From contig CAMASN010000005.1 in NCBI GenBank assembly GCA_945861025.1, forward strand, positions 7,239 through 71,238: a stretch of DNA of 64,000 bases, in the 5' to 3' direction. The notes below the pieces were generated by a model. That model saw only the letters and a program-made list of their open reading frames with translations, did no database searches and had not been told where the DNA came from. Of this stretch, positions 6,128-24,264 are shown in pieces; the stretch's first letter is position 1; each line of letters starts with the position of its first letter. The position numbers were made by a program, and so were the translations under genes. Source of the stretch: Ferrithrix thermotolerans DSM 19514 (GTDB lineage Bacteria > Actinomycetota > Acidimicrobiia > Acidimicrobiales > Ilumatobacteraceae).

Positions 6128-6148
6128 TTCTCCTGTGAGCGACTCGTT

Positions 6149-6942: not shown

Positions 6943-6953
6943 ATGGAGGCGGT

Positions 6954-6979: not shown

Positions 6980-6987
6980 TTTACGAG

Positions 6988-7281: not shown

Positions 7282-7291
7282 GCCCAGCCGC

Positions 7292-7720
7292 ATGGATGCC
7301 TTCGATGCCGATGTGATGATCTACGCAGCAGTGAAGGGGCACGCACTCGGGCGTCGGGTGCGAGCACTCTTCGCCGAGGTATCTGCCGCCGATGCTGATG
7401 CCGTAGCTGGTGTGGGGTCGGTGTTGTTGTTGCCTGAGTTGTTGGCGAAGCCAATGAGGGACAACGTCGGCACTGAGTTGGAAGAACTCGGCGCGCTGCT
7501 TGCTCGGCTCGATCTGCGGCCAGTAGATCAAGCCACGGCCGAACTCGCCACTGCGCTTGGCGCTTCATACGGCTTGCGAGCAGCAGATGCGACGCATCTT
7601 GCGACGGCTGTAATCGCCGGTGCTGACCGGTTCATTACCAATAACTCCAAGGACTTCCCGAAGTCGATTGTCGAGATCGACATCACCTACCCAGCCGACC
7701 TGCCCGACCCGCGCAAATAG
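7292..7720 (+). CDS. vapC: PIN-domain toxin (VapC family)
   Basis: MDAFDADVMIYAA...LLPELL...LRAADATHLATAVIAGADRFITNNSKDF. Starts 10 nt after the antitoxin stop. Confidence 0.8.
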   Translation: MDAFDADVMIYAAVKGHALGRRVRALFAEVSAADADAVAGVGSVLLLPELLAKPMRDNVGTELEELGALLARLDLRPVDQATAELATALGASYGLRAADATHLATAVIAGADRFITNNSKDFPKSIVEIDITYPADLPDPRK

Positions 7721-7761
7721 CGCGCAGTTGGCTGGCTCGTGGATCGTGGCGGGGCCTCCAG

Positions 7762-7798
7762 AAAGCGTCAGCGCACGGTTGACGTGCGCTGACGCTTT
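7762..7798. terminator. Perfect 16-bp stem / 5-nt loop hairpin between convergent genes (copy 2 of the 43-bp element)
   Basis: AAAGCGTCAGCGCACG-GTTGA-CGTGCGCTGACGCTTT. The 3' arm overlaps the stop codon (7797-7799) of the minus-strand GT2 gene. Confidence 0.6.
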
Positions 7799-8789: not shown

Positions 8790-9769
8790 GTTGCGTAACC
8801 GTTGGGGTGCGTTGAATGCCAACGCCATGCGGTTTCGATGATTGTGTCGAGGCTGTGCTCGGGAGTCCAGCCGAGTGTGCTGCGCACCAGAGTTGGATCG
8901 CTGTAGGTGCTCACCGGATCGCCGGCACGCCGAGGCGCAAGCGTGGTGGGAACGGTGACCCCGCCGATGCGTTCGGTGGCGTGCACCACATCGAACACGC
9001 TGCTACCAACGCCGGTGCCCACGTTGAGCGCAATGGTGTCGCCGCCATCAGCGAGGTAGGCAAGCGACAGCACATGTGCGTTGGCGAGATCTTCGACGTG
9101 GATGTAATCGCGAATCGCGGTGCCGTCGGGAGTGGGATAGTCGGTGCCGAAGATCTGCACGGGTGGCGCCATGCCCATCGCGGCTTTCATCACCACAGGA
9201 ATCAGGTTGGCGCTGTGGGTCCAGTCTTCGCCGATTGCGTTGTCGAGGCTGGCGCCAGCAGCGTTGAAGTAACGCAGGCTGACCGAGCGTAGGCCCGAGG
9301 TAACGCCGTACCACCGCAGCACCCGTTCGGTCATCGCCTTCGTTTCGGCATAGACGCTTTCGGGATCGATGGGGGCGGCTTCGCTGACGGGCACAACGGC
9401 CGGTGTGCCGTAGACCGAGCACGATGATGAGAACACGAATTGCTTCACGCCAGCGTGGAGCAATGCATCAACGAAGCGCGCAGAACCATCGACGTTGTTG
9501 CGCCAGTACTTCGCTGGGTTCTGCATTGATTCGCCCACGGCTTTGTGCGCAGCGAAGTGCACCACCGAGGTGACCTTGTGGTCGCCGCACACTTGGTTCA
9601 CGAGTTCGGCATCGGCGATGTTGCCGATGACGAGCGGCGTGTCGAGCGCTGCTTGAGCGTGGCCGGTGTCGAGCGAGTCGAGCACCACCACGTTGCGGCC
9701 GAGGCTGCGCAGTTGGCGCACCGTGTGCGAGCCGATGTAACCGGCCCCGCCAGAGACGAGCACTGTCAT
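8786..9769 (-). CDS. galE: UDP-glucose 4-epimerase
   Basis: MTVLVSGGAGYIGSH..., the S...YxxxK SDR pattern (YAETKAM), 327 aa. Confidence 0.9.
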   Translation of the reverse strand: MTVLVSGGAGYIGSHTVRQLRSLGRNVVVLDSLDTGHAQAALDTPLVIGNIADAELVNQVCGDHKVTSVVHFAAHKAVGESMQNPAKYWRNNVDGSARFVDALLHAGVKQFVFSSSCSVYGTPAVVPVSEAAPIDPESVYAETKAMTERVLRWYGVTSGLRSVSLRYFNAAGASLDNAIGEDWTHSANLIPVVMKAAMGMAPPVQIFGTDYPTPDGTAIRDYIHVEDLANAHVLSLAYLADGGDTIALNVGTGVGSSVFDVVHATERIGGVTVPTTLAPRRAGDPVSTYSDPTLVRSTLGWTPEHSLDTIIETAWRWHSTHPNGYAT

Positions 9770-9802
9770 GTTGGCCTCCTTGGGTAGACGTGCGTGCGGT
9801 GG

Positions 9803-10753
9803 TTATAGCGACAGTTCGTCGCGGATTGCGTCGATCATTGGGATGAGGCCATCGCGTAGCGACACGGTAGGGGTCCATCCGAGTTCTGTCGAGATCAGTG
9901 AGATGTCGGGGCAGCGCTGCATCGGGTCGCCTTCGCGTTCGGCGGGCAACGGCATCGTGATGATCTCGCTTGAGGTTCCGGTGAGTTCGACCACGAGTTC
10001 GGCGAGTTGGCGCATCGTGAATTCGCCGGGGTTACCCACGTTGATGGGTCCGGTGAGCGGGCCATCGAGCACAGCGATAAGGCCGCGCACCTCGTCGGCT
10101 ACGTAGCAAAAGCTGCGAGTCTGGCTGCCGTCGCCGAACAGGGTGATGGGCTGGCCTAGCAGTGCTTGGCAGATGAAGTTGCCGACCACTCGGCCATCGT
10201 CGGGGCGCATGCGCGGGCCGTAGGTATTGAAGATGCGCACGATGCGAACCTCGAGGTCGTGCACGCGATGGTACGCCATGGTGATTGCTTCTGAGAAGCG
10301 CTTGGCTTCGTCGTAGCAACTGCGCGGACCAATGCTGCTCACGTTGCCCCAATATGACTCGGGTTGCGGGTGCACGAGCGGATCGCCGTAGACCTCGCTG
10401 GTGCTGGCCAAAAAGAAGCGAGCGTCTTTGATGACAGCAAGGTCGAGCAGGTTGCGTGTGCCCGTACTTCCGACATCGAGGATCTCGAGCGGAATGGTGG
10501 CGAAGTCGTTCGGCGACGCGGGGCTGGCGAGATCCATCACTGCATCGATGTATCCGTCGATGAACAACTGCTCGGTCACGTCTTGCTCGAGGAACAAGAA
10601 GTTGGGATGATCGGCGAGATGTGCGATGTTCTCGGGGCGGCCGCTGATGAAGTTGTCGACAGCGATCACCTCGTCGCCGCGAGCAAGCAGAGCGTCGGCC
10701 AGATGCGAGCCGATGAACCCTGCGCCGCCAGCGATGAGCACGCGGTATGTCAT
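9803..10753 (-). CDS. UDP-glucuronate decarboxylase (UXS-type extended SDR)
   Basis: Internal start MTYRVLIAGGAGFIGSH...ASTSEVYGDPLVHPQPESYWGNVSSIGPRSCYDEAKR. The ATGA overlaps the ugd stop. Confidence 0.85.
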   Translation of the reverse strand: MTYRVLIAGGAGFIGSHLADALLARGDEVIAVDNFISGRPENIAHLADHPNFLFLEQDVTEQLFIDGYIDAVMDLASPASPNDFATIPLEILDVGSTGTRNLLDLAVIKDARFFLASTSEVYGDPLVHPQPESYWGNVSSIGPRSCYDEAKRFSEAITMAYHRVHDLEVRIVRIFNTYGPRMRPDDGRVVGNFICQALLGQPITLFGDGSQTRSFCYVADEVRGLIAVLDGPLTGPINVGNPGEFTMRQLAELVVELTGTSSEIITMPLPAEREGDPMQRCPDISLISTELGWTPTVSLRDGLIPMIDAIRDELSL

Positions 10754-12018
10754 CGGCCAACGCCTTGGTAGCTGAAGCCGAGGCGAATGGCGGCTGAACG
10801 GTCGAGCAAGTTGCGTGTGTCGACAATGCTCGAGCCGCGCAGACGCCGCTTGGCTTCGGCCAGATCGAGCCAGCGGAATTCGTCCCACTCGGTGAGCACG
10901 ACAAGCGCATCGGCGCCGTCGCACACTTCGAGGGCGTCGGTGCCGACCGTGATGCTGGGGTGCGATTTCACCTGTGGGTCATAGGCCTTGACAACGGCGC
11001 CCCTGGCGATGAGTTCGGTGATGATCGCAATCGCTGGCGACTCGCGAAGGTCGTCGGTGTTGGCCTTGAACGTGAGGCCCCATGCGGCGACCACTGCGCC
11101 GTCAAGGTTGCCGCCAACGGCGCGCTCGACCTTGGCCACCATGCGCTCGCGCTGTTCGTCGTTGACCACAACAACACCCTTGAGCAAGTTGAAGTCGTAG
11201 CCGGCGTCTTCGGCGATCTTGACCATCGCTCGCGTGTCTTTCGGGAAGCAACTGCCGCCCCAGCCCGGGCCGGGGCGAAGGAACTCGTGACCGATGCGCT
11301 TGTCGTAACCGAGCCCGAGCACGACATCGTTCACGTCGGCACCCACGGCTTCGCACACGGCGGCCACTGCGTTGACGAACGAAATCTTCGTTGCCAAGAA
11401 CGCGTTGGCTGCGTACTTGATGGTCTCGGCCGATGCTGGATCGGTGACGATGAGGTGTGTGCTGGTGGTGGAGTACAGATCGGCCACGCGGGTGGCGGCG
11501 CTGGGATCGTCGCTGCCGATGACAACTCGATCAGGTTTCAGGAAGTCGCTGACGGCCGAACCTTCGCGCAAGAACTCGGGGTTCGAGACCACCGAGACAT
11601 CGTGACGACCGAGCACACGCTCGACCACTTTGGTAGAGCCGACTGGCACGGTTGATTTGTTGACGACCACTGCGTGAGCAGGAAGCACCGATGCAATCTC
11701 GGCGGCCGCTTGTTGCAGGTAGGTGAGGTCGGCAGCGCCATCGTCGCCCTGCGGGGTCTGCACGCACAGGTAAGCGAACTCGCAATCCTTGGCGGCAACT
11801 GCAGCGCCCACGACGAAGCGAAGGTGACCGCTGGCGATGCCCGCCTCGACGATCTCTTGCAGGCCTGGCTCGTAGATCGGCAAGATGCCGTTGCTGAGCC
11901 GCTCGATGCGGGCCGGGTCGATGTCGGCGCACACCACGTGGTGTCCAAGGTGCGCAAAGCACGCACCGGTCGTGAGACCAACGTAGCCCGTGCCGATGAT
12001 TGCGATTCGTGAACCCAT
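10750..12018 (-). CDS. ugd: UDP-glucose 6-dehydrogenase
   Basis: MGSRIAIIGTGYVGLTTGACFAHLGHHVVCADID...GWGGSCFPKD (catalytic Cys motif). Confidence 0.9.
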   Translation of the reverse strand: MGSRIAIIGTGYVGLTTGACFAHLGHHVVCADIDPARIERLSNGILPIYEPGLQEIVEAGIASGHLRFVVGAAVAAKDCEFAYLCVQTPQGDDGAADLTYLQQAAAEIASVLPAHAVVVNKSTVPVGSTKVVERVLGRHDVSVVSNPEFLREGSAVSDFLKPDRVVIGSDDPSAATRVADLYSTTSTHLIVTDPASAETIKYAANAFLATKISFVNAVAAVCEAVGADVNDVVLGLGYDKRIGHEFLRPGPGWGGSCFPKDTRAMVKIAEDAGYDFNLLKGVVVVNDEQRERMVAKVERAVGGNLDGAVVAAWGLTFKANTDDLRESPAIAIITELIARGAVVKAYDPQVKSHPSITVGTDALEVCDGADALVVLTEWDEFRWLDLAEAKRRLRGSSIVDTRNLLDRSAAIRLGFSYQGVGR

Positions 12019-12121
12019 GTGCCCTTCACCCTGCTGACAAAGCCCTCCTGAGGGCTGCAACAGTCTAGAGGTGAGCGCAGACCCGAGTGGGCCACTGACG
12101 GCCTACTAGTGTGAGGTCTTC

Positions 12122-12859
12122 ATGGCCCCGAGACGACACAGAGCATCATTCGCTGAGGCCGATATCGCACTTGAGCAAACGCTTGAGGAACTCGACGAGC
12201 ATGTACCCAATTACAACGAGTGGCTGCGCTCGCTTGTTGAGCTGGCATCGCATGGCCGAGTGCTCGAGGTAGGTGCCGGCGTGGGCACGTTCACCTTGGC
12301 CCTGCTGCAGACCGCCGATCATGTGGTCGCGGTTGAGCCGTCTCTTCGGGGCAGCGCCGCAATCGCGAAGACAACTCATGGCGACCACCGCGTCACGGTG
12401 GTGCACGGATACGCCAGCGATGCCGCGGCGCTTGGTCCGTTTGATGGAGCCGTGTTGTCGAACGTGCTTGAGCACATTGAAGACGACGAAGCTACGTTGC
12501 GCGAGCTCTGCACGGTTGTGCGTCCCGGTGGTTTCGTTGCGGTGTATAGCCCGGCGTTTGAACTGTTGATGAGCGACTTCGATAGGTCGATCGGTCACGT
12601 GCGTCGCTATCGCAAGCGAGAGTTGAGCGATCGTTTTGCCGCCGCCGGCTTCGAGGTAGTTGAAGCCCGTTACGTAAACGTGCCGGGGTTCTTTGCCTGG
12701 CTGCTGGTGGCTCGATTGCTGCGCAAGAGACCAACGCATTCGGTGCTCAGCGGCATTTACGATCGGTTCGTCGTGCCGCCAACGCGCTGGCTCGAATCGC
12801 ATGTGCGGCCACCGTTTGGCCAATCGGTGTTGGTCATCGGACGCGTGCCGCAGGCCTAA
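12122..12859 (+). CDS. Class I SAM-dependent methyltransferase
   Basis: VLEVGAGVGTFTLAL motif I, then AVLSNVLEHIEDDEATL. Divergent from ugd. Confidence 0.8.
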   Translation: MAPRRHRASFAEADIALEQTLEELDEHVPNYNEWLRSLVELASHGRVLEVGAGVGTFTLALLQTADHVVAVEPSLRGSAAIAKTTHGDHRVTVVHGYASDAAALGPFDGAVLSNVLEHIEDDEATLRELCTVVRPGGFVAVYSPAFELLMSDFDRSIGHVRRYRKRELSDRFAAAGFEVVEARYVNVPGFFAWLLVARLLRKRPTHSVLSGIYDRFVVPPTRWLESHVRPPFGQSVLVIGRVPQA

Positions 12860-13256
12860 GCAGTGCATCGATCTCTCCCCTTCGGTAATCCCGCAGACAC
12901 TCACTGTTGATACATCGCCTTCGGTTCGATGGCTTGATCACTTTCGACATCGCAGATGGACAACACGGCAGCACAAGAATTGCCAGCACGATTGCGTGGT
13001 GCGGCTATGCGCGCCAGTTGGTGCTGTCTCCTACGCACTTGTCCGATATTCAAAGGCAGTTGTTCTTCTGTAGCCAGCGTTACCTGCTCGCCAACGGCGC
13101 ATTACTCCCGTTTCTCGGATGGAACTCGAAGTCGCATGCATAGGGGATCGACGTGCAGTCGATCGCGATGCGGTAGTACACAATCGACAGTTGCATCTCG
13201 AAGGTTGCGGCACGTCTGAAAGCGGCTTTACCGACAGCAGTTTTTGAGGCCTTGCT

Positions 13257-14903
13257 GTGGTCAAGCTGCGAGGATCAAACTTGGGAACACCTGCCGCGCT
13301 CGTTGGCCATAGATGCCGCCAACTTGCCGGCTCACGTGGTCGGTTTGATCACGAACAGCGCAACTGTCGTGCGTCGGAGTTCGGGAAAATTCTGCGGTAC
13401 TGTTCGACAATCAAACTGCAAGCCTTGGCCCCCAAATCTGTTGGTGGAAGAAGCCGTATCTTGTTGGCGGCGTGTGCATCAGTCGTTGCCCTGACGGGAC
13501 TCATGATTCGCCTTTTGATTCACGCGATGCCGGTGGGCAGGGTGAACTCCGATGAGGCAATCGCCGGGCTGATGGCCCGGCATTTCGCTCGGGGCGAGTG
13601 GACCACGTTCTATTGGGGTCAGAGCTACGCAGGTTCGCTTGAGATGGTCGTGACAGGCGCGATCATGAAGGTAACCGGATCCGATGTGTTCGCGTTTTAT
13701 GCAGTGCCGTTCGTCGAATCGTTGCTTGTGGCTGGTCTGACATTCCTGATCGCTCGAAACCACGTCGGGAGAGATCGAGCCATATTTGCCGGTCTCTTGG
13801 TTTGGGTTTTTCCGGCTGCATGGGTGTTGCTCAGCACAAAGGCAATGCTGTTTTACCAGCCCACGCTGATATTCGGATTGACTGCCGTTTTGGCTGCCGA
13901 TTCGTTGATCCAGCGGAATCGATCGCGTTTGATCGTGTGGTTTGGATTTGGTTTGGTACTTGGACTCGGATGGTGGTGTTCGTTCCAGATCCTTTTTTTC
14001 GCAGTGCCAGCAATCGTTTGGCTGCTTGTGCGCCGTGGCAACAGGTTCGCCGAGTGGCTCGTTGCGCTGGTTGGGGGCTTGATCGGCGCTTCGCCATGGC
14101 TTGTGTACTACATCAAATATGACGGCTTGCCGCTTAAACAGCTTGCGGGGGGCCAAGGTGGTTATGTCGACCACCTCAACTCAATTGTTACCGCCGGACT
14201 CCCAATGGCCGTTGGTGGCCGCCAGCCGTACACGGAGCGGTGGCTCACACTCGGGGCGGGTCCGTTGGTGCCGATTTTGATTCTTGGCGCGATAGCGACG
14301 GCAGTAGTGGTCTGCTGTCGAAACAGGGTGGTCTGGCACCCGTTATTTCTTGTTGCGCTCGTGTTCGTACCCTTGCATGCCCTCGCCGCAGGTGCTTTCT
14401 ATGTCGGTTCTGGTCGTTACTTTATTTTCTTGGCGCCAACTGTGGCCTTTTGTATTGTCAGTTGCACCCGAAGGTTGTCGATACTCGCTGGCTTGTCGGT
14501 CTTCGCTGCGTTGGTGAGTGGCGCGACGATTTGGGGTATTCGAGATGCTTACGTAGCGCCCCCTTCGACGGCGCCGGTGGGGCGCTTGTTAGAGAGTCGC
14601 CAGATTCGTCACGTATATGCGAGTTATTGGGTGGCGTACAAGTTGACGTGGGAATCACACGAGGCCGTGCGCGCGGCATCTGACTTTGATCGTTATCCGT
14701 TGTGGAGCGTTGAGGCTCGCAGCGCGGCCAGTGCTGCCTACGTGATGTATCTCCCAATTGCTCAAGACGAGCATCGTTACGAAGCAGTTGTTGACGGGCT
14801 CAAAGACCAATCGATTGCTTATGAGGAATTCATCCGGGGCGCGTACGTCGTGATAATCCCGGAGCGAAACGTTGCTCCTGAGGCGCTAGGGCTCGCAGGT
14901 TAA
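13257..14903 (+). CDS. Polytopic membrane protein, GT-C / ArnT-PMT (GT39)-like glycosyltransferase candidate; start uncertain
   Basis: Many hydrophobic helices. An acidic D-E motif lies in the first predicted external loop (GRVNSDEAIAGLMARHF) after TM1 (ILLAACASVVALTGLMIRLLI). There is a C-terminal soluble domain. The gene sits in a visibly AT-richer stretch. Confidence 0.6.
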   Translation: MVKLRGSNLGTPAALVGHRCRQLAGSRGRFDHEQRNCRASEFGKILRYCSTIKLQALAPKSVGGRSRILLAACASVVALTGLMIRLLIHAMPVGRVNSDEAIAGLMARHFARGEWTTFYWGQSYAGSLEMVVTGAIMKVTGSDVFAFYAVPFVESLLVAGLTFLIARNHVGRDRAIFAGLLVWVFPAAWVLLSTKAMLFYQPTLIFGLTAVLAADSLIQRNRSRLIVWFGFGLVLGLGWWCSFQILFFAVPAIVWLLVRRGNRFAEWLVALVGGLIGASPWLVYYIKYDGLPLKQLAGGQGGYVDHLNSIVTAGLPMAVGGRQPYTERWLTLGAGPLVPILILGAIATAVVVCCRNRVVWHPLFLVALVFVPLHALAAGAFYVGSGRYFIFLAPTVAFCIVSCTRRLSILAGLSVFAALVSGATIWGIRDAYVAPPSTAPVGRLLESRQIRHVYASYWVAYKLTWESHEAVRAASDFDRYPLWSVEARSAASAAYVMYLPIAQDEHRYEAVVDGLKDQSIAYEEFIRGAYVVIIPERNVAPEALGLAG

Positions 14904-15033
14904 AACGCGGCCTCTTTCCCTCATTTGTGTTCGCCCGTGTCAGCAAGGCGCCCCACTCTGCAGACAGCAGACCCGCAGAACGATTTCGATCCCGGATTAG
15001 GGTGAAGTCGCGCCGCCATCAAATCTGCTGGTG

Positions 15034-17652
15034 CTACGTGGATCGGGGCACAAGGTGAGCCCACACATCGGCCGAATAGGTTTTCCATGTTGGCCATTGC
15101 CGAGCCTTGGCCTCGAGTCGCAATCGATTGAGTTCGATTGGGTCCGTGAGCAATTTACGCATTGCGTCGGCAATCTCTGACGGCACCCTTGGATCGACCA
15201 TGACGGCGCCGCCGCCGTCTCCGACCTCGTGCATTGAGCCGTAGTTCGATGTGATCACTGGGGTTCCGGAGGCTAGGGATTCCGCAATTGGCAGTCCGAA
15301 CCCCTCGAGGAGGGATGGGAAAACGGTAAATTCTGCCAAGCGGTACAACGACCAGATTTGATTCTCGGTGGCGCTCTTGATGACTTGGATGTCGCGGTTG
15401 GACGCGATGAGTCGTCGGCTGAAGTTGTTGAACTCGTCGCCCTTCCACCCGCTGCCTCCCACAAAAACCAATTGAAATTCGAGGCCACCGCGCCACAACG
15501 ACTCGGCAGCTTCAAGTACCGAAATGTGGTTCTTGCGGGGCTCGTGACTTCCGAGCACGAGCACTAATGGGGTCCGACCGAGACCGAGCTGTGCATGAGT
15601 GTCGGCGAGATTCTGCTCGGTCAAGCCGACTACTTCTGATGGCAGCGGATGCGCTGCGATGTTGGGCCCGACGAGCCCTTGCAACGCAAAGGTGGAGCAA
15701 AAAGCCGTGTATTCGGTGGCGGTGGCTTTGCTGATGGCTGAAATGCGATCAGCGGCCTTTGTCACTGTGACGGCGTTGGCGAACATGGTGGGCATGCCGT
15801 CGGCCACGGTCTCAGGGGCGGTATACGGAATCAAATCGTAAGCGATCATTGAGAGTTGGCAGATTCCCGACGTCCGCATCGTTCGGTATCCATTGCATCT
15901 GTCGGCTTCGGCAGCGAGTTCGGGAATGACGAGCACGGAGTTCCATGGGATGACCACTCTGCCCGAAGCGTCTCCGATGTCTCGGGGCCCGGTGGTTGTG
16001 TCGCCGGCGAGATGTTCCCTCCAGCCAACGAAGCGGTTGACCTCGGCATCGGACATCCGTTTCGGCGAGTTGGTTGAGAAATCCCAATGTACGAGCACAA
16101 CATCATCGTGGGCGCCGACCCACTCCGACACGGTCTCACGTGTAACGCGTTGGATGCCGGTGTGAAGGCTGTGTGCGGCGGTGTGGCTGACATCGACCAA
16201 GACTGACTGGGAGATGATCTCAAGGGGTAGATCCGTAGCCCGGCCGTAGCGGCAACAGTTGGCGAAGAACCGGGTCGCGTGGTCGAACAAAGACTGAGGG
16301 CCGTCAAGGCGTAACGCCCGAGCAGCCTCCGCGACCTCAATGTCGTTCGGGTAAGCCGCTCCTGCGGCGACGAGTACCAGCCAAGCTGAGGTGGTTGGCT
16401 CGAGCGCTGAGGCTACGAGGCATGCCCCAATTTGGTCGAAGGTATCAAGCTGCGACATTTCGGGATCGGTATCGGGATCGATAAGCACCGCTACCTGCCG
16501 TAGGCGAGCCAGCGCTGCGGCCGACAACGGCGAACCGCGGTGGGACAACTTGTTCGTTTCTGGTTCGACAGTCTTCTGTTGGACGAGGACGGCCTTTGAC
16601 TTTCCTGCAAAACGACGTACTACCCGGATTGGCTTTGTGATTCGCCAAGAAAGAGTCTGGTGAATAGCGTGAACAAGTTGCGCATAGTGATCGCGTTCAC
16701 TGTGGTTGTGCTGGTTGGCGACCAGGATCTGATCCCGTTCTCGCTCGACCGTGCTGAGCGATTCGTTGAGGCCGAGAATTTCGTGCCTCTGCGCCCGCCG
16801 CCTTGCCTCGATGAAGTTCAGCGACTGCTCTAACACTCGGTTCTTCTCGGTCAACTCATCGACAAGCCGCTGGGCCGAGCGTTGAGCGCTGATCACGTTC
16901 TGGGTGACGGCCTCTTGAAAAGAGGGCAACTGGGATGCGACATACGGCTGGTCGTGCGCGCCTGCGGGGTAGGTAAGTAGCGGGAGCAGGTCTATGTGTT
17001 CGCCAGCAACGAAAATGCTGTTGAGCCCATCGAAGAGTGCATGGGTGTAGTTGTGCGCAACAAGCGCTGGCCGCCACTCGCCGTCTGTCTCCTGGGCTGA
17101 GAACGGCTCGGTTGACCCAATCACGATGACCCATGGGCGAACAGTGGACAAGTCGATGCCGGCCAAGACCGCTGCCTCGGCGCCTTCGACGTCAATTTTC
17201 AGAAAGTGGATTTCGTGGTTCGCTAGCGGTGTTTCCGCGATCAGGCCATCCAGTCGGCGAACGTCAACCGACACTTTCTCAATGCCGAATCCAAGGGCCC
17301 CATCGCGCTCGGCTCGGTCATCGCTGGGAGACGACGGTCCGGTGCCATGCGACAGGTTGAACGTTGCGGGACCATCCGAGGCTCCGGCCGCAACGTGAAG
17401 TGTGGTGTCGCGCGGGCGCAGAGCGCTGAGCTGGCCGGCATATTCCTCAGCAGGCACCACGTTGATGCCCGACCAACCCCGGTCGTAGAACGCTTTCGTG
17501 ACGGAGTACCTCATGGGATCGCATGCCCCTACATCAACGTAGGTGCCGTTGGTGATGTGGCGTAAAGCGCGCCACAGCACGACGTCCTCGGCGTTCTGTG
17601 CGTATGAAATGAACGTTGCGCCGTGGCCTAGGAGATCTTTTGGTTGGTTCAA
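15034..17652 (-). CDS. Three-part fusion: FkbM-family methyltransferase, coiled coil, GT4 glycosyltransferase
   Basis: N-terminus YVDVGACDPMRYSV...FLKIDVEGAEAAVL (FkbM). Heptad-rich SAQRLVDELTEKNRVLEQSLNFIEARRRAQRHEILGLNESLSTVERERDQIL, followed by SWRITKPIRV. C-terminus DVSHTAAHSLHTGIQRVTRE...FPSLLEGFGLPIAESLASGTPVITS (GT4). Confidence 0.85.
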   Translation of the reverse strand: MNQPKDLLGHGATFISYAQNAEDVVLWRALRHITNGTYVDVGACDPMRYSVTKAFYDRGWSGINVVPAEEYAGQLSALRPRDTTLHVAAGASDGPATFNLSHGTGPSSPSDDRAERDGALGFGIEKVSVDVRRLDGLIAETPLANHEIHFLKIDVEGAEAAVLAGIDLSTVRPWVIVIGSTEPFSAQETDGEWRPALVAHNYTHALFDGLNSIFVAGEHIDLLPLLTYPAGAHDQPYVASQLPSFQEAVTQNVISAQRSAQRLVDELTEKNRVLEQSLNFIEARRRAQRHEILGLNESLSTVERERDQILVANQHNHSERDHYAQLVHAIHQTLSWRITKPIRVVRRFAGKSKAVLVQQKTVEPETNKLSHRGSPLSAAALARLRQVAVLIDPDTDPEMSQLDTFDQIGACLVASALEPTTSAWLVLVAAGAAYPNDIEVAEAARALRLDGPQSLFDHATRFFANCCRYGRATDLPLEIISQSVLVDVSHTAAHSLHTGIQRVTRETVSEWVGAHDDVVLVHWDFSTNSPKRMSDAEVNRFVGWREHLAGDTTTGPRDIGDASGRVVIPWNSVLVIPELAAEADRCNGYRTMRTSGICQLSMIAYDLIPYTAPETVADGMPTMFANAVTVTKAADRISAISKATATEYTAFCSTFALQGLVGPNIAAHPLPSEVVGLTEQNLADTHAQLGLGRTPLVLVLGSHEPRKNHISVLEAAESLWRGGLEFQLVFVGGSGWKGDEFNNFSRRLIASNRDIQVIKSATENQIWSLYRLAEFTVFPSLLEGFGLPIAESLASGTPVITSNYGSMHEVGDGGGAVMVDPRVPSEIADAMRKLLTDPIELNRLRLEAKARQWPTWKTYSADVWAHLVPRST

Positions 17653-17786
17653 TGTTTCAGATCCTAGGTTCGCCGCGAGTACGAGTACAGGCGTTGTGGG
17701 TAGCGGTGTTGATCGTGAAACTGTGAACGAACGGGGTGCCGCCGACCCGCCAACAGCCGACCTGTTCGGGTCCTTGTTGACTCACG

Positions 17787-18983
17787 TCAGGACCCCATCG
17801 ACCACTGTGGGCGCATTGTCACGAGCCCGCCGGTCTCATAGGGCTTGCCCGACATGACATCGAAACGCAAGGCCAGATGCACGTTGTCGTATTCGTGTTG
17901 CCGATTGAAGTCGGTGACGGTGGTGTGAATGTCGTAGGTGCCAGGAAGCAAACCGACCGCATCCATCACGATGTCTACGTGCCCTTCGCCCGAAACCATT
18001 TCGGGAATAAGGCCAACGTCGCGAGTGCACGGCGCGGTCACGGTTGCGCCGCCGAGGCTCTCGATCTCGAACCCAAAGATGGGCTTCGGAACCGGCTTGG
18101 CGGCGGTGTAGTTCAGTCGCAAACGAATGTTGTCCGATGTGCGGAAACGCTTGACGGGTTCGGGGTTGTCGCCCACGAATAGCTCGACCGACGAGATCTG
18201 CAGTTCGCCTGACCCGCGGCGCACGCTGCCATCAACGTTGCGGTTGCGATTGCCCAGCATCATCTCGGTGTAGGCGTCGACAAGATCTGATGGGTCGCCT
18301 TCGCCTGTGATGACGCCGTGGGTCAACCAGATGGCGCGGTCACACATGTTCTTCACGCTGCCGAGGTCGTGGGTCACCAAGATGATGGTGCGCCCGTCGT
18401 TACGGAACTCAACGAACTTCTCGAGGCAGCGCTGCTGAAAGGTCACGTCGCCCACAGCAAGAATCTCGTCAACGATGAGCAAGCGCGGATCAACGTTGAT
18501 GGCGACGGCGAACGCCAAGCGCACGTACATGCCCGACGAATATGTCTTCACGGGTGCATCGATAAAGCTCTCCAAGCCGGAGAACTCGACGATCTCGTCG
18601 AACCGTGCCGCAATCTCGCGGCGTCCCATTCCGAGAATGGCGGCGTTCAAAAAGATGTTCTCGCGGCCGCTGAGTTCGGGGTGGAATCCGGCGCCCAGTT
18701 CGAGCAGCGCCGACATGCGCTTGTGCACCGTGACGGAGCCAGCATTGGGCTGCAAGATGCCGGCCATGCACTTGAGCAGCGTTGATTTGCCCGAGCCGTT
18801 TTGTCCGATGACGCCGAAGACTTCGCCTTCGTTCACGGTGAACGACACATCGCTGAGTGCGGTGAACTCTGCGAACTTGTTACGCCCACCAGTTGCGATG
18901 AGTTGCTTGATCGAATTGGTCTTTTCGCTATGCAAGCGGAAGCTCTTGGTGAGGTGCGATACCTCGAGGGCGATGTTGCTCAT
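17787..18983 (-). CDS. wzt: Polysaccharide ABC exporter ATP-binding protein Wzt/TagH type, with a ~145-aa C-terminal extension
   Basis: GQNGSGKSTLLK, SSGMYVRLAFA, LLIVDEILAVGD. After about aa 250 there is a beta-rich tail (ELQISSVELFVGD...RLRLNYTA...FGFEIE...HVDIVMD...YDIHTTV). Confidence 0.9.
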   Translation of the reverse strand: MSNIALEVSHLTKSFRLHSEKTNSIKQLIATGGRNKFAEFTALSDVSFTVNEGEVFGVIGQNGSGKSTLLKCMAGILQPNAGSVTVHKRMSALLELGAGFHPELSGRENIFLNAAILGMGRREIAARFDEIVEFSGLESFIDAPVKTYSSGMYVRLAFAVAINVDPRLLIVDEILAVGDVTFQQRCLEKFVEFRNDGRTIILVTHDLGSVKNMCDRAIWLTHGVITGEGDPSDLVDAYTEMMLGNRNRNVDGSVRRGSGELQISSVELFVGDNPEPVKRFRTSDNIRLRLNYTAAKPVPKPIFGFEIESLGGATVTAPCTRDVGLIPEMVSGEGHVDIVMDAVGLLPGTYDIHTTVTDFNRQHEYDNVHLALRFDVMSGKPYETGGLVTMRPQWSMGS

Positions 18984-18986
18984 GGT

Positions 18987-19784
18987 CTACATCTCCTCGG
19001 CGAACTTGGGGGAGAGACGGTTGAAGACCCACGCACCCAGAAAGAACATTCCAAAGCCAAGCACCATGAGTTCGACAAGGTTGATCACGCCAGGAATTCG
19101 ACCGTCGTACATGATGTCGTGCGCAGCTGTGATGAAGGCACCCGTTGGTCCGTAGCGGGCGAGATACTGAAGTGCTGGCAAGCCGACTGAGGCTGGAAAG
19201 TAGATAACCGGGGTGGCGTAGAAGAGCAGTTGAGACCCGATGGTCCACAGGTAGTTCACGTCGTGGAAGAACACGTTGGCTGCCGAGAGCGCAAGCGCTA
19301 CGCCGGTAGTGAACAGCGCAAGCATGCACATCACGGCAATCATCGCTGGAAGCCACGGCAGCACCATGTTGCCGCCGATGAGCATGGCAACAGTGAGGAC
19401 GCCCAGCTCAATCATCAGCGTCACGAACTGGGCAATGACCACAGAAAAGACGAGATGCTCGTGGGGGAACTGCACCTTCTTGATCAGCCCGGCGCCGCCT
19501 TGCACCGCACCGATGGATACGCCCACGGTGATCGCAAAGAAGTTGAAGGGCAACAGGCCCGAGAGAAAGTACAACGGAAAGTTGGCGAGCCCGCTGGGGT
19601 CGCCGGCCAAAGGTTTTGCCTTGAACACGTAGCGGAAGATCACGGTGAAGATGACCATCTGCGACAGCGGGTTGAGCAGGCTCCATGCCCAGCCCAGTAC
19701 CGATTTCTTATATCGCGTGCGCAATTCTTTGAGCGACAGCAAATACAACAGGTTGCGGTGCGCCATCGCGGACTTGAGAGACAT
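18987..19784 (-). CDS. wzm: ABC-2 type polysaccharide exporter permease Wzm
   Basis: 265 aa. N-terminus LLYLLSLKELRTRYKKSVLGWAWSLLNPL, typical of ABC-2 permeases, with about 6 TM segments. Ends 3 nt upstream of the wzt start. Confidence 0.9.
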   Translation of the reverse strand: MSLKSAMAHRNLLYLLSLKELRTRYKKSVLGWAWSLLNPLSQMVIFTVIFRYVFKAKPLAGDPSGLANFPLYFLSGLLPFNFFAITVGVSIGAVQGGAGLIKKVQFPHEHLVFSVVIAQFVTLMIELGVLTVAMLIGGNMVLPWLPAMIAVMCMLALFTTGVALALSAANVFFHDVNYLWTIGSQLLFYATPVIYFPASVGLPALQYLARYGPTGAFITAAHDIMYDGRIPGVINLVELMVLGFGMFFLGAWVFNRLSPKFAEEM

Positions 19785-19864
19785 GAAGACCTCACTCTAG
19801 TTGCGTAGGCATCTGCCACGTGCTCAATCCAAGTGACCCGCCGAGGCGGCTAGCCTGTGCGCTT

Positions 19865-20194
19865 ATGCCAGCCAAGCCCGGTAGCGACAACACCAACGAC
19901 AACGAACTCGCCCAACTGCGTGCCGAAGTCGATCGCCTGCGTGCTCTCGTGGGACCCAACGAGCAGACATATATTCAGCTCAAGACCGAGATCTGGAGCG
20001 CCCGCGATGCGGTTATCGGCGCCGAAGCCGAGAACGGGTTGCTGCGCGGCCAAGTGAAGTCAATGCATGCGGCGGTTGCCCCAACACTGATGATCCATCA
20101 GTTCCTCAAAGACGAAGTGCTCTTGCGTGTCAAGCGGTGGCGTACCTACGTGCGTCGGTTGGTCATCAAGGTCGGCAAGAAGTTGCGCCGATGA
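19865..20194 (+). CDS. Small coiled-coil protein of unknown function
   Basis: MPAKPGSDNTNDNELAQLRAEVDRLRALVGPNEQTYIQLKTEIW... Its stop overlaps the ATG of the next GT gene (ATGA at 20191-20194). Confidence 0.5.
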   Translation: MPAKPGSDNTNDNELAQLRAEVDRLRALVGPNEQTYIQLKTEIWSARDAVIGAEAENGLLRGQVKSMHAAVAPTLMIHQFLKDEVLLRVKRWRTYVRRLVIKVGKKLRR

Positions 20195-21786
20195 CCCCGT
20201 TGTTCTCGGTGCTCACGCCGGTGTACGACCCGCCGCACGACGTGCTGTTGGCGATGATCGATTCGGTCGTTGCGCAGACCTTCGACAACTGGGAACTGTG
20301 CCTTGTTAACGATTGCTCTACCGATCCAGTGATCGCTTCGTTACTCGATGCCGCTGCTCGTTCTGACAAGCGCATCAAGGTCATTCACCGAAGTGAGAAC
20401 GGTGGCATCATCGCCGCCTCGGCCGATGCACTGGCAATGGCCACTGGCGACTTCGTTGCGTTACTCGACCACGACGACCTACTCAACGAAGTAGCACTTG
20501 CCAGTTTCGTCGAGGTGCTCGGCATGCATCCCGACATCGACTACTCGTATAGCGACGAAGCGCATCTCACGCCATCGGGTCAGATTGTCACGCCGTTCTA
20601 TAAGCCCGATTGGTCGCCCGAGCGCCTTCGCAGCCAGAACTACTGCACGCACTTTTCGGTGTTGCGCCGCTCGTTGGTCAACGAGGTAGGTGGGTTCCGT
20701 CCGGGCTTCGAAGGCAGTCAGGATTACGACCTGATTCTGCGGGTCACCGAGAAGGCGCGCTACATCCATCACTTTCCGTACCTGCTCTACATCTGGCGGC
20801 AGCTACCAACTTCGGTGGCCGGCAACAAAGACGCCAAGCCCTACGCATATGAGTCGGGCAAGCGAGCTCTGCAAGATCACGCCGACCGCTTGGGCATCGC
20901 CGCCACGGTCGAGATGCAAGAGCCGCTCGGCACCTATCGCTTTCGTCGGCACCTCACGCGTACACCTCGCGTCAGCGTGATCATCCCTACTCGCGGCACG
21001 AGCTCAATCGTGTGGGGCGTCACGCGCAATCTTGTTGTTGAGACCGTCGAAAGTTTGATCGAGAAAGAGAGCTATCCAGATCTCGAGATCATCATCGTGG
21101 CCGACACGCCAACGCCACCGTCGGTTATTCATGCGTTGCAACGCATCGGCGGCGATCGAGTGAAGATCGTTTGGTACGACCGTCCGTTTAACTTCAGCGA
21201 GAAGATCAATCTGGGTGCAGCGCATGCAACCGGCGAGCTGTTGCTGATGCTCAACGACGACATGCAAGTGATCACTCCCGATTTTTTAACCGACATGGTG
21301 CCGCTTGCGCTCGAAGATGGCGTGGGCATGGTGGGTGCCAAGCTGTACTTCGCCGACGGCACCATTCAGCACGCTGGCCACGTGTACAACGGCGACCCCT
21401 ATCACGCCATGTTCCGTTGGGCAGGCAATGAGCTCGGGCCATTTGGTCTGTTGGTGGTGCAACGCGAAACCGTTGGCGTCACCGCCGCATGTGCGTTGTT
21501 GCGAATGGACGTGTTCGAGCAAGTGGGCGGGCTCACGCCGATGCTGCACTCGAGCTACAACGATGTCGACCTCAGTTTGAAGGTGCGTTCGCAAGGCCAT
21601 CGGGTCGTTTGGACACCGTACGTAGAGCTGTATCACTTCGAGAGCCAGACCCGTGAGCCTCACCCCAGCGACGAAGAGCACGCGTTCATTCGCAGCCGCT
21701 GGCGCGAGCAGTTGGTCAACGACCCGTACTACAACCACAACCTCGCGCCTCGCCGCGACGACTGGGTGAGCAAGGCGTTGCGCTGA
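20191..21786 (+). CDS. Glycosyltransferase with two GT2 domains
   Basis: Domain 1: FSVLTPVYDPPHDVLLAMIDSVVAQTFDNWELCLVNDCSTD...LLDHDD. Domain 2: VSVIIPTRGTSS...EIIIVADTPTP...LMLNDDM. Confidence 0.85.
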   Translation: MTPLFSVLTPVYDPPHDVLLAMIDSVVAQTFDNWELCLVNDCSTDPVIASLLDAAARSDKRIKVIHRSENGGIIAASADALAMATGDFVALLDHDDLLNEVALASFVEVLGMHPDIDYSYSDEAHLTPSGQIVTPFYKPDWSPERLRSQNYCTHFSVLRRSLVNEVGGFRPGFEGSQDYDLILRVTEKARYIHHFPYLLYIWRQLPTSVAGNKDAKPYAYESGKRALQDHADRLGIAATVEMQEPLGTYRFRRHLTRTPRVSVIIPTRGTSSIVWGVTRNLVVETVESLIEKESYPDLEIIIVADTPTPPSVIHALQRIGGDRVKIVWYDRPFNFSEKINLGAAHATGELLLMLNDDMQVITPDFLTDMVPLALEDGVGMVGAKLYFADGTIQHAGHVYNGDPYHAMFRWAGNELGPFGLLVVQRETVGVTAACALLRMDVFEQVGGLTPMLHSSYNDVDLSLKVRSQGHRVVWTPYVELYHFESQTREPHPSDEEHAFIRSRWREQLVNDPYYNHNLAPRRDDWVSKALR

Positions 21787-21787: not shown

Positions 21788-24052
21788 GTGGCGGTACTCG
21801 CGGGTGAATCGTGTCGAGTGTGCCTCATCGTGCCCGCTGGTCAATGGAACCTCGTGCCCATCACGAGCGCGCTTCGTCAGCATCATCCTCGCTGGTCGAT
21901 CTCAGCGGTCTGGTGTGGCGACCCGCACCTGCGTCCAACGCTGCCAACGTCGTTGGCGATTGAATGGTGCGATGTCGACCTCGCCGAGCCAACTGGTGCG
22001 GGGTGGGGGCGGCTGATTACGGCGCTGCCCGCCCGCCTCTATGAATGGTGTCGCGCGGCGGTGGCTGTCGAGCGACTTCTCGACCGAGCCGACGAGTCGG
22101 TTGTGGTCCTGCGCGTCGGTTCGGTAGCTGTGTTGGGTGATTGCTCGTCGATGGTGAGTGCCGATGTGGCGACCTTGATTTCTCGATCCTCCTCTGTGCT
22201 TCCAAGCGATGGGTTGGCGCCCAAAGAAGGCGATCTCATCGAGCGAGGCGAGCACTGCACCGTTGCCGCTGCGTTTCGACCAGGAGCGCAAGGTGCACTT
22301 GTGTGGCTGTATCAACAACTCGGGTGCGCCGCTGGCGAGGTCGGTCCGTGGCTCGATCGTATGGGTCGGATGTTTGGTGCGGGTCACTGTGTTGACGAAC
22401 GAATCGGTGCTGGCCCGTGGCGGGCACCTACCGCAATCGCACCGACCCTCGTCGATATTGATCTCATCGATCGCGACCAGCCGTGGTTCTTCTCGTTCGA
22501 TGGCGCGCCGACCCGGATGCGTCTGTCTGATGACTCAGTATTGGCCGCAGCGGTGCAATCAGCGACAGCTCAGATTGAGGGCGCCGAGGCTCCGATCAAA
22601 TTGCCGGGAGGCATCGCGGTGGACCACGCGATGCGCACGCTGATGCGCGCAGCGATCTTGGCGTGGCGTCAGGGCGTCGCACAGTTGCCACCAGAGCCGT
22701 TTAGTACTCACAACGCTGCGTTCATGCGCTGGCTTGAGTCACCCGAACCTGGTGGCGCAGATATCGGGCGTTACTGGTTGGCCGTACGTGACCAGCGTCC
22801 CGATCTGCAGGCAGCGTTTCCGCATGCACGCAGCGTCGACGCAGCGAGATTTGCTGAGTGGGCCGATGCGAGTTGGCGGCTCGAGGGTCGTTCCGCGTTG
22901 CTTGCGTCCGGCGTTGGTGCGTGCAATGCAATTAAGTCGATCGGCTTCGATTCGGCAGGTGTCAACGTGCTCGGCTACATCGACTTCGATCAGAGTCAGG
23001 GGCATATCGCGCGCGAGTTGGTGGCGGCCTTCGGGGCGGCAGGTGTTGGCGTGTCGGCGCTGAACCACAATCGTTCGCTTGGGGCTCGCCGTAGCGACGA
23101 AGCTGCGACGCCCCGAGAAGCTCGCTTCGCCACAAACATCGTTGTCGTCAACGCTGATCAATTTGAGTTCGTTGTGTCCGATCACGGCGCCACCTTGCTC
23201 GATGGTCGCTACACAATCGGATACTGGTTCTGGGAACTCGAACACATCCCGGCGACGATGCTGCCAGCAATCGATCACGTAGACGAAATATGGACCGGCT
23301 CGCAGTTCGTTGCCGATGCATTCTCGCGGGTTACCGACAAACCAGTTCGATGCGTGCCGCTGCCGGTGGCTCAGCCGCAACCGTCGCAGCGCACGCGTGC
23401 AAGCTTCGGATTGCCTAATGACCGCTTTGTGTTTTTGGCAACGTTCGATCAGTTCAGCGTGCCCGAACGTAAGAACCCATTTGGGGTGATCGAGGCGTTC
23501 ACCCGTGCGTTCGCCGATGGCGAAGGGCCGTTGCTGTGGATCAAGACCCTCAACGGCGACAAGGGGTGGCAGCAGCACGAACGGTTACTCCTGGCTGCGT
23601 CGGGCCGTAGCGACATCATCGTGCGTGACGAGCATCTCAGCCGTCCCGATCAGATGGCGGTGTTGCAGGTTGCCGACTGTCTCGTCTCGTTGCACCGATC
23701 CGAAGGCCTTGGCCTTCATTGCGCCGAGGCAATGTGGCTGCGTAAGCCGGTTATCGCAACGCGCTATTCGGGCAATCTCGATTTCATGGACGACTCGTGC
23801 GCTGCAATGGTCGACTACGAGCTGGTGCCAGTGCGGCACGGTCAGGGCATCTATCCACCTGAGGCGATGTGGGCCGAACCCGATGTCGAACAAGCTGCGG
23901 CACACATGCGCGCGTTGGCGTCAGACTCGGCGCTGTGTTCTCGACTTGGCGCGAGCGCCCGCGAACGAATGGCGTCGCAAGCTTCTCAAGCGGAGACCGG
24001 CCGCATGATGGTCGAGTTAGCAACCAGACATTTCACGAAGGGAAGCATCTGA
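21788..24052 (+). CDS. Large glycosyltransferase: ~480-aa N-terminal region of unknown function plus a C-terminal GT4 domain
   Basis: GTG start 2 nt after the previous stop. C-terminus FLATFDQFSVPERKNP...VSLHRSEGLGLHCAEAMWLRKPVIATRYSGNLDF (GT4 EX7E-type region). Confidence 0.8.
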   Translation: MAVLAGESCRVCLIVPAGQWNLVPITSALRQHHPRWSISAVWCGDPHLRPTLPTSLAIEWCDVDLAEPTGAGWGRLITALPARLYEWCRAAVAVERLLDRADESVVVLRVGSVAVLGDCSSMVSADVATLISRSSSVLPSDGLAPKEGDLIERGEHCTVAAAFRPGAQGALVWLYQQLGCAAGEVGPWLDRMGRMFGAGHCVDERIGAGPWRAPTAIAPTLVDIDLIDRDQPWFFSFDGAPTRMRLSDDSVLAAAVQSATAQIEGAEAPIKLPGGIAVDHAMRTLMRAAILAWRQGVAQLPPEPFSTHNAAFMRWLESPEPGGADIGRYWLAVRDQRPDLQAAFPHARSVDAARFAEWADASWRLEGRSALLASGVGACNAIKSIGFDSAGVNVLGYIDFDQSQGHIARELVAAFGAAGVGVSALNHNRSLGARRSDEAATPREARFATNIVVVNADQFEFVVSDHGATLLDGRYTIGYWFWELEHIPATMLPAIDHVDEIWTGSQFVADAFSRVTDKPVRCVPLPVAQPQPSQRTRASFGLPNDRFVFLATFDQFSVPERKNPFGVIEAFTRAFADGEGPLLWIKTLNGDKGWQQHERLLLAASGRSDIIVRDEHLSRPDQMAVLQVADCLVSLHRSEGLGLHCAEAMWLRKPVIATRYSGNLDFMDDSCAAMVDYELVPVRHGQGIYPPEAMWAEPDVEQAAAHMRALASDSALCSRLGASARERMASQASQAETGRMMVELATRHFTKGSI

Positions 24053-24264
24053 TGGCACTGATGTCACGACTGAGCCGACTCGTCGGTGGCCGTTCTAACG
24101 CGCAAACCACCGCCGGTTACCGTGAGGAGTTGCGGGCGCTACACATAAAGGTTGGGCGACTTGATGAAGAGCTTCACCAACTTCGCTCACAGATGCGCGA
24201 AACGGTCAACGATCTCGGCGATCGCATCGGCTCGGTGGCGGAACGGCTTAACTCGGCCCCGTAA
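24052..24264 (+). CDS. Small coiled-coil protein of unknown function
   Basis: MALMSRLSRLVGGRSNAQTTAGYREELRALHIKVGRLDEELHQLRSQMRETVNDLGDRIGSVAERLNSAP. The ATG overlaps the TGA of the preceding GT gene by 1 nt. Confidence 0.45.
   Translation: MALMSRLSRLVGGRSNAQTTAGYREELRALHIKVGRLDEELHQLRSQMRETVNDLGDRIGSVAERLNSAP

Follow-up and report, generated by a model that had tools for sequence, protein, structure and literature searches.

The window analyzed here is a 64,000-nucleotide stretch of the Ferrithrix thermotolerans DSM 19514 assembly (contig CAMASN010000005.1, forward-strand positions 7,239 to 71,238), and its subject is a gene lying next to wzm and wzt, which encode an ATP-binding cassette (ABC) transporter. 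The 872-residue product of this gene joins an FkbM-family methyltransferase, a long coiled-coil-like helix, a short cationic motif that we call SWR after its consensus, a helical bundle, and a glycosyltransferase (GT) of family GT4. The protein almost certainly belongs to an ABC-transporter-dependent glycan pathway, and it is probably the chain-terminating, length-setting component of such a surface-glycan pathway, fused to one GT. The host, a member of the Acidimicrobiia, is a monoderm, and the glycan is therefore expected to be a cell-wall or surface glycan and not a lipopolysaccharide (LPS) O antigen. To our knowledge, control of chain length by a molecular ruler has been established experimentally in only a handful of enterobacterial O-antigen systems, and the uncharacterized family described here would extend the ruler logic to environmental Actinomycetota.

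Architecture of the fused protein

The gene occupies positions 15034..17652 of the minus strand, as delimited by its open reading frame (ORF), by domain calls, and by an AlphaFold2 (AF2) model. The ORF of 872 codons begins with TTG at 17652, has AGGA 9 nt upstream of this start, and runs down to 15034; the plus-strand frame over the same interval is closed by many stop codons. As the sequence-only reading of this DNA had stated, the gene lies directly downstream of wzm (18987..19784) and wzt (17787..18983) on the same strand, and because it is convergent with a gene for a PMT_2-like membrane glycosyltransferase (13257-14903), it is the last gene of its wzm-wzt-X unit. An imperfect inverted repeat (CCTAGGATCT ... 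AGATCTCCTAGG, 17627-17668, minus strand) brackets the TTG start, and a hairpin formed from it could, judging by the sequence, sequester the start codon. A scan for promoters and terminators returned nothing above chance.

The same reading had recognized within one ORF an FkbM domain, a heptad-rich segment, and a complete GT4 domain, and both the Pfam matches and the AF2 model bear this out. All motifs that it quoted were found: YVDVGACDP at residues 38-46, FLKIDVEGAEAAVL at 150-163, the heptad segment itself, SWRITKPIRV at 335-344, TGIQRVTRE at 498-506, and EGFGLPIAESLASGTPV at 783-799. Absent from that description were a disordered linker and a conserved five-helix domain, both located between the coil and GT4. 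The AF2 model was built on 77 homologues, to which the residue conservation and segment lengths given below also refer; its mean predicted local distance difference test (pLDDT) score is 89, and it is confident everywhere except in the linker.

The N-terminal domain (residues 11-239; 16936..17622, minus strand) is a member of the FkbM family of S-adenosylmethionine (SAM) methyltransferases by both profile and fold. It matches Pfam Methyltransf_21/FkbM (PF05050) over residues 40-202 (E 9.6e-24, 84.9 bits against a cut-off of 22.7) and TIGR01444 (E 1.5e-12, 48.2 bits against a cut-off of 37.7), and AF2 gives residues 11-239 a class-I methyltransferase fold. The SAM loop, V-D-V-G-A, has D40 and G42 invariant. 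When the domain was modeled separately (pLDDT 86), all of its Foldseek matches were SAM methyltransferases, and PDB searches with the domain by sequence and by profile yielded no match. Its putative activity is SAM-dependent O-methylation of a sugar hydroxyl, and the domain is the proposed chain terminator, which would leave an O-methyl cap.

The C-terminal domain (residues 477-867; 15052..16224, minus strand) is a retaining glycosyltransferase of CAZy family GT4, as established by profile, fold, an intact EX7E motif (E783-E791), and the basic residues that contact the donor phosphate. Pfam Glycos_transf_1 (PF00534) matches residues 690-849 (E 1.4e-25, 90.3 bits against a cut-off of 26.4), AF2 builds residues 477-867 as the two Rossmann domains of a GT-B fold, and the top Foldseek matches of this part are PimB', MshA, sucrose-phosphate synthase (SPS), and ManT, with E values down to 2e-13. 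E783, E791, R706, and K707 are invariant. Because the SAM loop, EX7E, R706/K707, and the SWR motif are invariant or nearly so, both enzymes look active. The GT4 domain may serve as a polymerase module, a cap-sugar transferase, or an adaptor, and we give the first of these even chances.

A rod that varies in heptad steps

Between the methyltransferase and the SWR motif, AF2 builds one uninterrupted helix of 91 residues (241-331; 16660..16932, minus strand), which at 0.148 nm per residue corresponds to a rod of ~13.5 nm and is the proposed ruler. In the model, FkbM sits at the N-terminal tip of this rod, and the cationic amphipathic motif and the GT lie at the other end. The coiled-coil check called for by the sequence-only reading upheld the heptad-rich character of the segment: the best a/d register scores 12.5, compared with 6.85 +/- 1.31 for the shuffled sequence (p = 0.0008), and a weak Pfam Tropomyosin match covers residues 245-332. 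The pattern favors a coiled coil over a single stable helix. Leucine or isoleucine at d combined with asparagine or arginine at a is, by the general rules for coiled coils, suggestive of a parallel dimer. The a positions here are V264, N271, L278, R285, I292, L299, R306, N313, R320, V327, and L334, and the d positions are L267, L274, I281, Q288, L295, V302, I309, N316, Y323, and I330, a composition that suggests a parallel dimer.

A ruler function of this rod is suggested by its variation within the family. When the 77 proteins were cut at conserved anchors and the segments compared, the stretch from the end of FkbM to the SWR motif ranged from 39 to 144 aa (standard deviation 34 aa), as against 117 +/- 3 aa for the helical bundle and 375 +/- 5 aa for GT4; the FkbM part also varies little. 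The coil is thus the family's only hypervariable segment, and close relatives differ in it by 7-residue steps, near-identical proteins often by exactly 7, 14, or 21 residues. In one clade, whose catalytic parts are 61-94% identical, rod lengths of 97, 104, 111, 118, 125, and 132 residues are found. Individual pairs show the same pattern: the coils of two proteins with 94% identical catalytic parts (P0036/P0037) differ by 7 residues, as do those of a pair with 91% identity (P0013/P0016), while a pair with 84% identity (P0043/P0052) differs by 21. Across pairs with at least 60% identity and unequal coils, the difference is a multiple of 7 in 63 of 111; in a set of pairs where no protein appears twice, 19 differences are non-zero, of which 7 are divisible by 7 (2.7 expected; binomial P = 0.013) and five more equal 3 or 4 modulo 7.

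The rod therefore appears to be the fast-evolving part of the protein, with insertions and deletions that tend to keep the heptad phase. Such variation would be expected if selection acts on length while the tip has to retain its orientation relative to the base. That a coil is hypervariable and heptad-stepped between near-identical proteins is only indirect evidence that chain length scales with coil length, and we judge it somewhat more probable than its opposite that the coil acts as a ruler. The natural series of rods from 97 to 132 residues offers material for probing the ruler model and for engineering glycans of defined length.

The SWR motif and the joint between two units

After the rod comes the cationic amphipathic motif SWRITKPIRVVRRF (residues 334-348; 16609..16653, minus strand), which we propose as a membrane-proximal 'foot' on the basis of its conservation and hydrophobic moment. 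Its consensus is SWRxTxPxRxxRR, and AF2 models a short helix at residues 334-347. S335, W336, T339, P341, R343, and R346 are conserved in at least 90% of the homologues. The helix includes the highest hydrophobic moment (0.71) of any 15-residue window in the protein and carries a net charge of +5, making it the most amphipathic and most cationic segment of the whole polypeptide. These properties are compatible with an interfacial membrane anchor, and the strict conservation of sequence suggests that the motif makes an additional specific contact. The SWRxTxPxR foot may be a docking site for the membrane or for the polymerase. We know of no earlier description of this motif.

The foot is followed by a linker predicted to be disordered (residues 349-372, pLDDT <50; 16537..16608, minus strand), which is where the terminator unit and the GT unit are joined. 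Its length varies from 23 to 101 aa, and it is at this site that split genes break. Beyond it lies a five-helix bundle (residues 375-468, AF2 pLDDT >90; 16249..16530, minus strand) that belongs to no Pfam family, always precedes this GT4, and has R383, W424, and P435 invariant. A profile spanning the SWR motif, linker, and bundle retrieved 536 representative proteins among 1.84 billion, and these fall into three length classes: a majority of ~500 aa that consist of bundle and GT4 only, without a coil; proteins of ~570-660 aa with coil, SWR, bundle, and GT4; and proteins of ~800-940 aa that include FkbM.

Split, fused, and swapped forms

With the whole protein as query, 338 relatives were retrieved, and the same architecture from FkbM to GT4 recurs in more than 90 clusters (at 90% identity), with 36-82% identity and 97-100% coverage. 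Nearly all members are metagenomic, and the named ones, from Ilumatobacteraceae and Gaiella, are all annotated only as 'FkbM family methyltransferase'. Among representative genomes of the GTDB, the full-length form occurs in Gaiella, Acidimicrobiaceae, Jiangellaceae, Microbacterium, and Nakamurella, and longer versions with several GTs occur in several Proteobacteria. One protein of 1517 aa (P0108) strings together FkbM, a short coil, SWR, two GT4 modules, and a GT2. Forms consisting of coil, SWR, helical bundle, and GT4 without FkbM also exist. The comparison of architectures across homologous loci that the sequence-only reading had called for has thus yielded, besides the full-length clusters, split, swapped, and multi-GT forms.

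Two split forms are especially informative. In Subtercola sp. Z020, a 318-aa protein composed of FkbM and coil terminates just past the SWR motif ('...TVSWRITKPLRGVRSLRNGGS-stop'), and its gene adjoins wzm-wzt and a separate gene for a helical bundle with GT4. In Azospirillum brasilense MTCC4039, plasmid p5 carries (5987-13146; locus L085) wzm, wzt (407 aa), a gene for a 460-aa FkbM-coil-SWR protein, and a gene for a 1257-aa glycosyltransferase, with a GDP-mannose 4,6-dehydratase gene ~2.5 kb downstream. The coil of the 460-aa protein is internally repetitive (AELDHFR... three times), and a long basic amphipathic tail follows its SWR motif. On sequence grounds, this locus holds the same terminator module in split form, here in a Gram-negative setting and with a division resembling that between WbdD and WbdA. 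The split and fused forms together link an FkbM-coil-SWR unit with a helical-bundle-GT4 unit, and in the protein studied here the joint between the two is the disordered linker.

A third arrangement is found on a contig of GCA_038227995.1 (1-14406; locus L086), which encodes the closest relative of the GT part (P0049, 51% identity), a protein with a short coil, SWR, helical bundle, and GT4 but without FkbM. This contig is syntenic with the window, carrying a secreted protein, a small ORF, a large GT4, a dual GT2, a second small ORF, wzm, and a wzt with Wzt_C, and directly upstream of the P0049 gene lie separate genes for two class-I methyltransferases, one of 414 aa with a zinc ribbon and one of 280 aa. 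The arrangement has the look of an exchange of capping enzymes within an otherwise constant chassis, and it mirrors the swapping known for Klebsiella serotypes (PMC11231755). The 414-aa methyltransferase was considered as a WbdD-like coil protein and rejected, as it has no coil and consists of a zinc ribbon and a class-I methyltransferase. Also rejected was a third split point, between FkbM and coil, in locus L087 (7208-8100): just before the coil-GT4 gene, a 256-aa FkbM ORF runs out of frame at its tail while a different frame carries on with the coil, so that a frameshift in this long-read metagenome contig is the probable cause.

Tblastn searches of the related loci at 1e-5 with the coil/SWR segment, the helical bundle, and the small coiled-coil ORF described below retrieved almost nothing, because these parts diverge fast; motif anchors and the profile were used in their place. 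Of 22 other genomes of the host genus, a single one carries the SWR/helical-bundle module, and does so twice. The glycan locus is also poorer in GC at its core (13000-21000; 55-59%) than in its flanks (62-63%). The low GC content and the sparse occurrence in the genus suggest a variable, horizontally exchanged surface-glycan locus.

Transporter context and a working model

Wzm is an ABC-2 permease (Pfam ABC2_membrane, E 1.1e-12), and Wzt is the transporter ATPase, matching Pfam ABC_tran and, with E 3.6e-17 and 63 bits against a cut-off of 30.4, Wzt_C. The latter match corresponds to a carbohydrate-binding module (CBM) at residues 255-390 (nt 17814-18221, minus strand). Identity to the corresponding proteins of an Ilumatobacteraceae metagenome-assembled genome is 81% for the ATPase domain of Wzt and 74% for Wzm, which by itself makes a host within the Acidimicrobiia very probable. 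The best PDB match of Wzt is the full-length protein of Aquifex aeolicus (8dku, E 9.7e-66, residues 8-351 aligned), and the binding domain of the A. aeolicus WzmWzt transporter specifically binds a 3-O-methyl sugar cap (PMC9445017). The gene thus lies in a wzm-wzt locus whose Wzt carries a CBM, one of the features that define the coiled-coil ruler class; a further one, an extended coil with the terminating enzyme distal from the GT and membrane end, is supported by the AF2 model and the heptad register. Among related loci that bear FkbM and have a nearby Wzt, 10 of 14 encode a Wzt with a C-terminal extension of at least 150 aa, the size of a CBM.

These features can be combined into the following model. 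The chain would be grown by the fused GT4 together with two proteins encoded nearby, a dual-GT2 protein (20137-21786) and a 754-aa GT4 protein. The SWRxTxPxRxxRR helix and the GT unit would sit at the membrane, and the 91-residue helix, oligomerized as a coiled coil, would hold FkbM ~13 nm away from it. Only chains long enough to reach the tip of the rod would be O-methylated at their nonreducing end, and the methyl cap would block further elongation. The CBM of Wzt would then read the cap and so license export through Wzm-Wzt. We regard it as likely that FkbM makes the terminal methyl cap.

Comparison with characterized terminators

The coiled-coil terminator/ruler class comprises WbdD, WbbB, and the K. 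pneumoniae proteins KpO7 ORF6 and KpO4 ORF7 (PMC11231755). In WbdD of E. coli O8/O9a (equivalent to K. pneumoniae O5/O3), the length of the coil determines that of the chain, and the binding module of Wzt reads the cap, which in O8/O5 consists only of methyl (PMC11231755). As in the protein described here, the terminator catalytic domain of WbdD occupies the coil's distal end; the proximal end carries a membrane-binding amphipathic helix and a site for recruitment of the polymerase. This order of head, coil, and membrane- or polymerase-binding foot recurs in the FkbM-coil-SWR proteins that stand alone in Subtercola and Azospirillum. However, the methyltransferase of WbdD is from another family, and its GT4 polymerase WbdA is a separate, multi-module protein, whereas the GT studied here is in cis. 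The PDB searches, with the whole protein by sequence and with the FkbM domain by sequence and profile, listed no WbdD chain, and the protein is best described, from sequence, as an analogue and not a homologue of WbdD.

WbbB of K. pneumoniae O12 and Raoultella terrigena combines terminator, coiled-coil ruler, and polymerase modules in one polypeptide (PMC11231755). The three-part fusion is shared with the F. thermotolerans protein, but the terminator of WbbB is a Kdo transferase (GT99), and its two polymerase GT modules are of other families. In K. pneumoniae O7 ORF6, the terminator, whose activity was demonstrated biochemically, combines a methyltransferase with a kinase and is followed by a coil and a pair of GT2 modules (PMC11231755). 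ORF6 and the protein studied here have in common an N-terminal terminator that contains a methyltransferase, a central coil, a C-terminal GT, and a wzm-wzt locus. They differ in that ORF6 adds a kinase to its methyltransferase to make a methyl-phosphate cap, possesses an extra CBM-like domain, has two GT2 modules in place of one GT4, and carries a methyltransferase resembling CgnL, not FkbM; its host is Gram-negative, and its product is an LPS O antigen.

A close parallel in a Gram-positive host is WsaE, from the S-layer glycan pathway of Geobacillus stearothermophilus NRS 2004/3a, in which an N-terminal methyltransferase is joined to two rhamnosyltransferase modules (PMC2943079, PMC3898925). 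The wsaE gene lies directly after wzm-wzt, and its product makes a terminal 2-O-methyl cap thought to be recognized by the Wzt transporter (PMC2943079, PMC3898925). WsaE thus resembles the present protein in host type, in gene position, and in the fusion of an N-terminal methyltransferase to GT modules, but has two rhamnosyltransferase modules where ours has one GT4 preceded by a helical bundle; the descriptions in these two papers mention neither a long coiled-coil ruler nor an SWR motif. Two further relatives in design, both from Gram-negative LPS systems, were compared by their published descriptions: the E. coli O101/Onovel32 methyltransferase, in which a coiled coil at the C terminus follows an N-terminal methyltransferase and on which a terminal O-methyl group depends (PMC13168486), and the fused GT-methyltransferase genes described for the P. 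syringae TET operon.

The earlier claim that the domain combination differs from characterized examples is accordingly only narrowly true, since WsaE and K. pneumoniae O7 ORF6 show that fusions of a methyltransferase to GTs, in ORF6 through a coil, were already known. The principle itself is not new; what is new is an FkbM-type terminator joined to a single GT4, with a helical bundle and an SWR foot, in a monoderm. Among the papers that a full-text literature search listed, none linked FkbM with O-antigen or with chain termination. The most useful new points are the heptad-stepped series of rods, the SWR foot shared with stand-alone proteobacterial terminators, and the existence of split, fused, and swapped forms. 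It is conceivable, though we are doubtful, that FkbM-coil-SWR proteins constitute a distinct class of methyl-cap terminators spanning phyla from Actinomycetota to Alphaproteobacteria, in which the rod is retuned in heptads between otherwise near-identical proteins and SWR is the docking foot. The family would then constitute a natural experiment on coiled-coil rulers beyond Gram-negative LPS, one that includes monoderm actinobacteria, where the product may glycosylate the two secreted triple-beta-sandwich proteins encoded in the locus studied here.

Alternative explanations

The combination of methyl cap, coiled-coil ruler, and GT proposed in the sequence-only reading has become the best-supported explanation, through the Wzt_C module, the heptad-stepped coil, and the split forms. 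Several points weigh against it. The case for a terminator and ruler is comparative throughout, drawn from sequence and model analysis, and it is from such comparison that we infer methylation at the chain terminus and not within the chain, the state of oligomerization, attachment of SWR to the membrane, the ruler effect, and a polymerase function for GT4. The fold search with FkbM returned only generic class-I methyltransferases (TM score ~0.45), so that the methyl acceptor is not assignable from the fold, and the matches include MtmC, which C-methylates a nucleotide sugar. The rod could, though less probably, be a single stable alpha-helix instead of a coiled coil, and the heptad steps are only moderately significant when non-independent pairs are set aside. 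Wzt lacks the C-terminal extension in 4 of the 14 related loci. [quoted passage not shown] Finally, the locus encodes a second class-I methyltransferase of 245 aa (12122..12859, plus strand; Pfam Methyltransf_23/11/25), which could be the terminator instead, or an additional capping or decorating enzyme.

Some of these points converge on an alternative that we consider unlikely, namely that FkbM decorates internal repeat residues or a nucleotide-sugar precursor, that the helix only oligomerizes or scaffolds the GT complex, and that length is set otherwise, for example by transporter kinetics or by the 245-aa methyltransferase. Besides that second methyltransferase, the length-independence of WsaE, and the generic fold matches, among which the polysaccharide methyltransferase MeT1 appears alongside MtmC, it can draw on the best PDB sequence match of the GT4 domain, which is ManT of the polymethylated mannose polysaccharide pathway. 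Yet a rigid rod of ~13 nm between methyltransferase and GT is ill suited to methylating every residue as it is added, and a coil of 39-144 aa changing in heptad steps is far longer and more variable than oligomerization needs. The binding module of Wzt, moreover, implies recognition of a terminal mark, and the stand-alone FkbM-coil-SWR protein encoded directly after wzm-wzt in the Gram-negative locus with GDP-mannose 4,6-dehydratase has the layout of WbdD.

Quite improbable, in our estimation, is a two-step terminator, in which GT4 would add a cap or adaptor sugar once per chain and FkbM would methylate that sugar, with polymerization left wholly to the dual-GT2 and 754-aa GT4 proteins, recruited by the coil. 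The locus has enough other GT modules for such a division of labor (the dual GT2, the 754-aa GT4, and three more GT2 genes), the 754-aa GT4 protein is a conserved partner, and the helical-bundle-GT4 unit is widespread on its own as a single-module enzyme of ~500 aa. The active sites of such a terminator would be expected to lie close together, however, and AF2 places one at each end of the rod, with a disordered linker in between. In all characterized systems, the GT modules found at the coil base act in polymerization (PMC11231755). As for the three-part ORF being artificial, with separate genes fused into a chimera in assembly or annotation, the apparent frameshift between FkbM and coil in the long-read contig L087 shows that such errors occur, but the idea is effectively refuted because more than 90 clusters from independent samples have the same full-length architecture, and it also sits poorly with the identical protein on 2 contigs, a frame open over 915 codons in the genome assembly, and a model confident throughout apart from the linker.

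The surrounding locus

Divergently transcribed from the wzm-wzt unit are the genes for the two GTs to which we have assigned a part in chain growth. The first (20137..21786, plus strand) encodes a 549-aa protein with two Glycos_transf_2 stretches, is syntenic in L086, and is a candidate polymerase partner. The second (21788..24052, plus strand) encodes the 754-aa protein, which according to Pfam has a C-terminal GT4 and which accompanies the FkbM fusion in related loci; the counterpart encoded in the Ilumatobacteraceae locus shares 43% identity with it, and tblastn detects it in L002, L004, L005, and L008. Each is accompanied by a small ORF: one of 109 aa, predicted to be helical, is coupled by start and stop to the dual-GT2 gene (19865..20194, plus strand), and one of 70 aa, a small coiled coil, is coupled to the 754-aa GT4 gene (24052..24264, plus strand). 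Both are conserved in position in L002 and L086, where the counterparts have 97 aa and 87 aa (L002, from Ilumatobacteraceae) and 109 aa and 94 aa (L086). Sequence similarity to these counterparts is marginal (E 1e-4 and 8e-4). The two small proteins may serve as coiled-coil adaptors for the GT complex.

Among the ORFs scanned between 7800 and 33900, neither an initiating phosphoglycosyl transferase of the WecA/WbaP type nor an LCP-family ligase was seen. GalE, UDP-glucose dehydrogenase, and a UDP-xylose-synthase-like enzyme are encoded near the fusion gene, and UDP-galactose (UDP-Gal), UDP-glucuronic acid (UDP-GlcA), or UDP-xylose (UDP-Xyl) are therefore plausible donors. The locus also encodes two GT-C-like membrane proteins, the PMT_2-like protein that is convergent with the fusion gene and a DUF7657/DUF7654 protein at 26932-28989.

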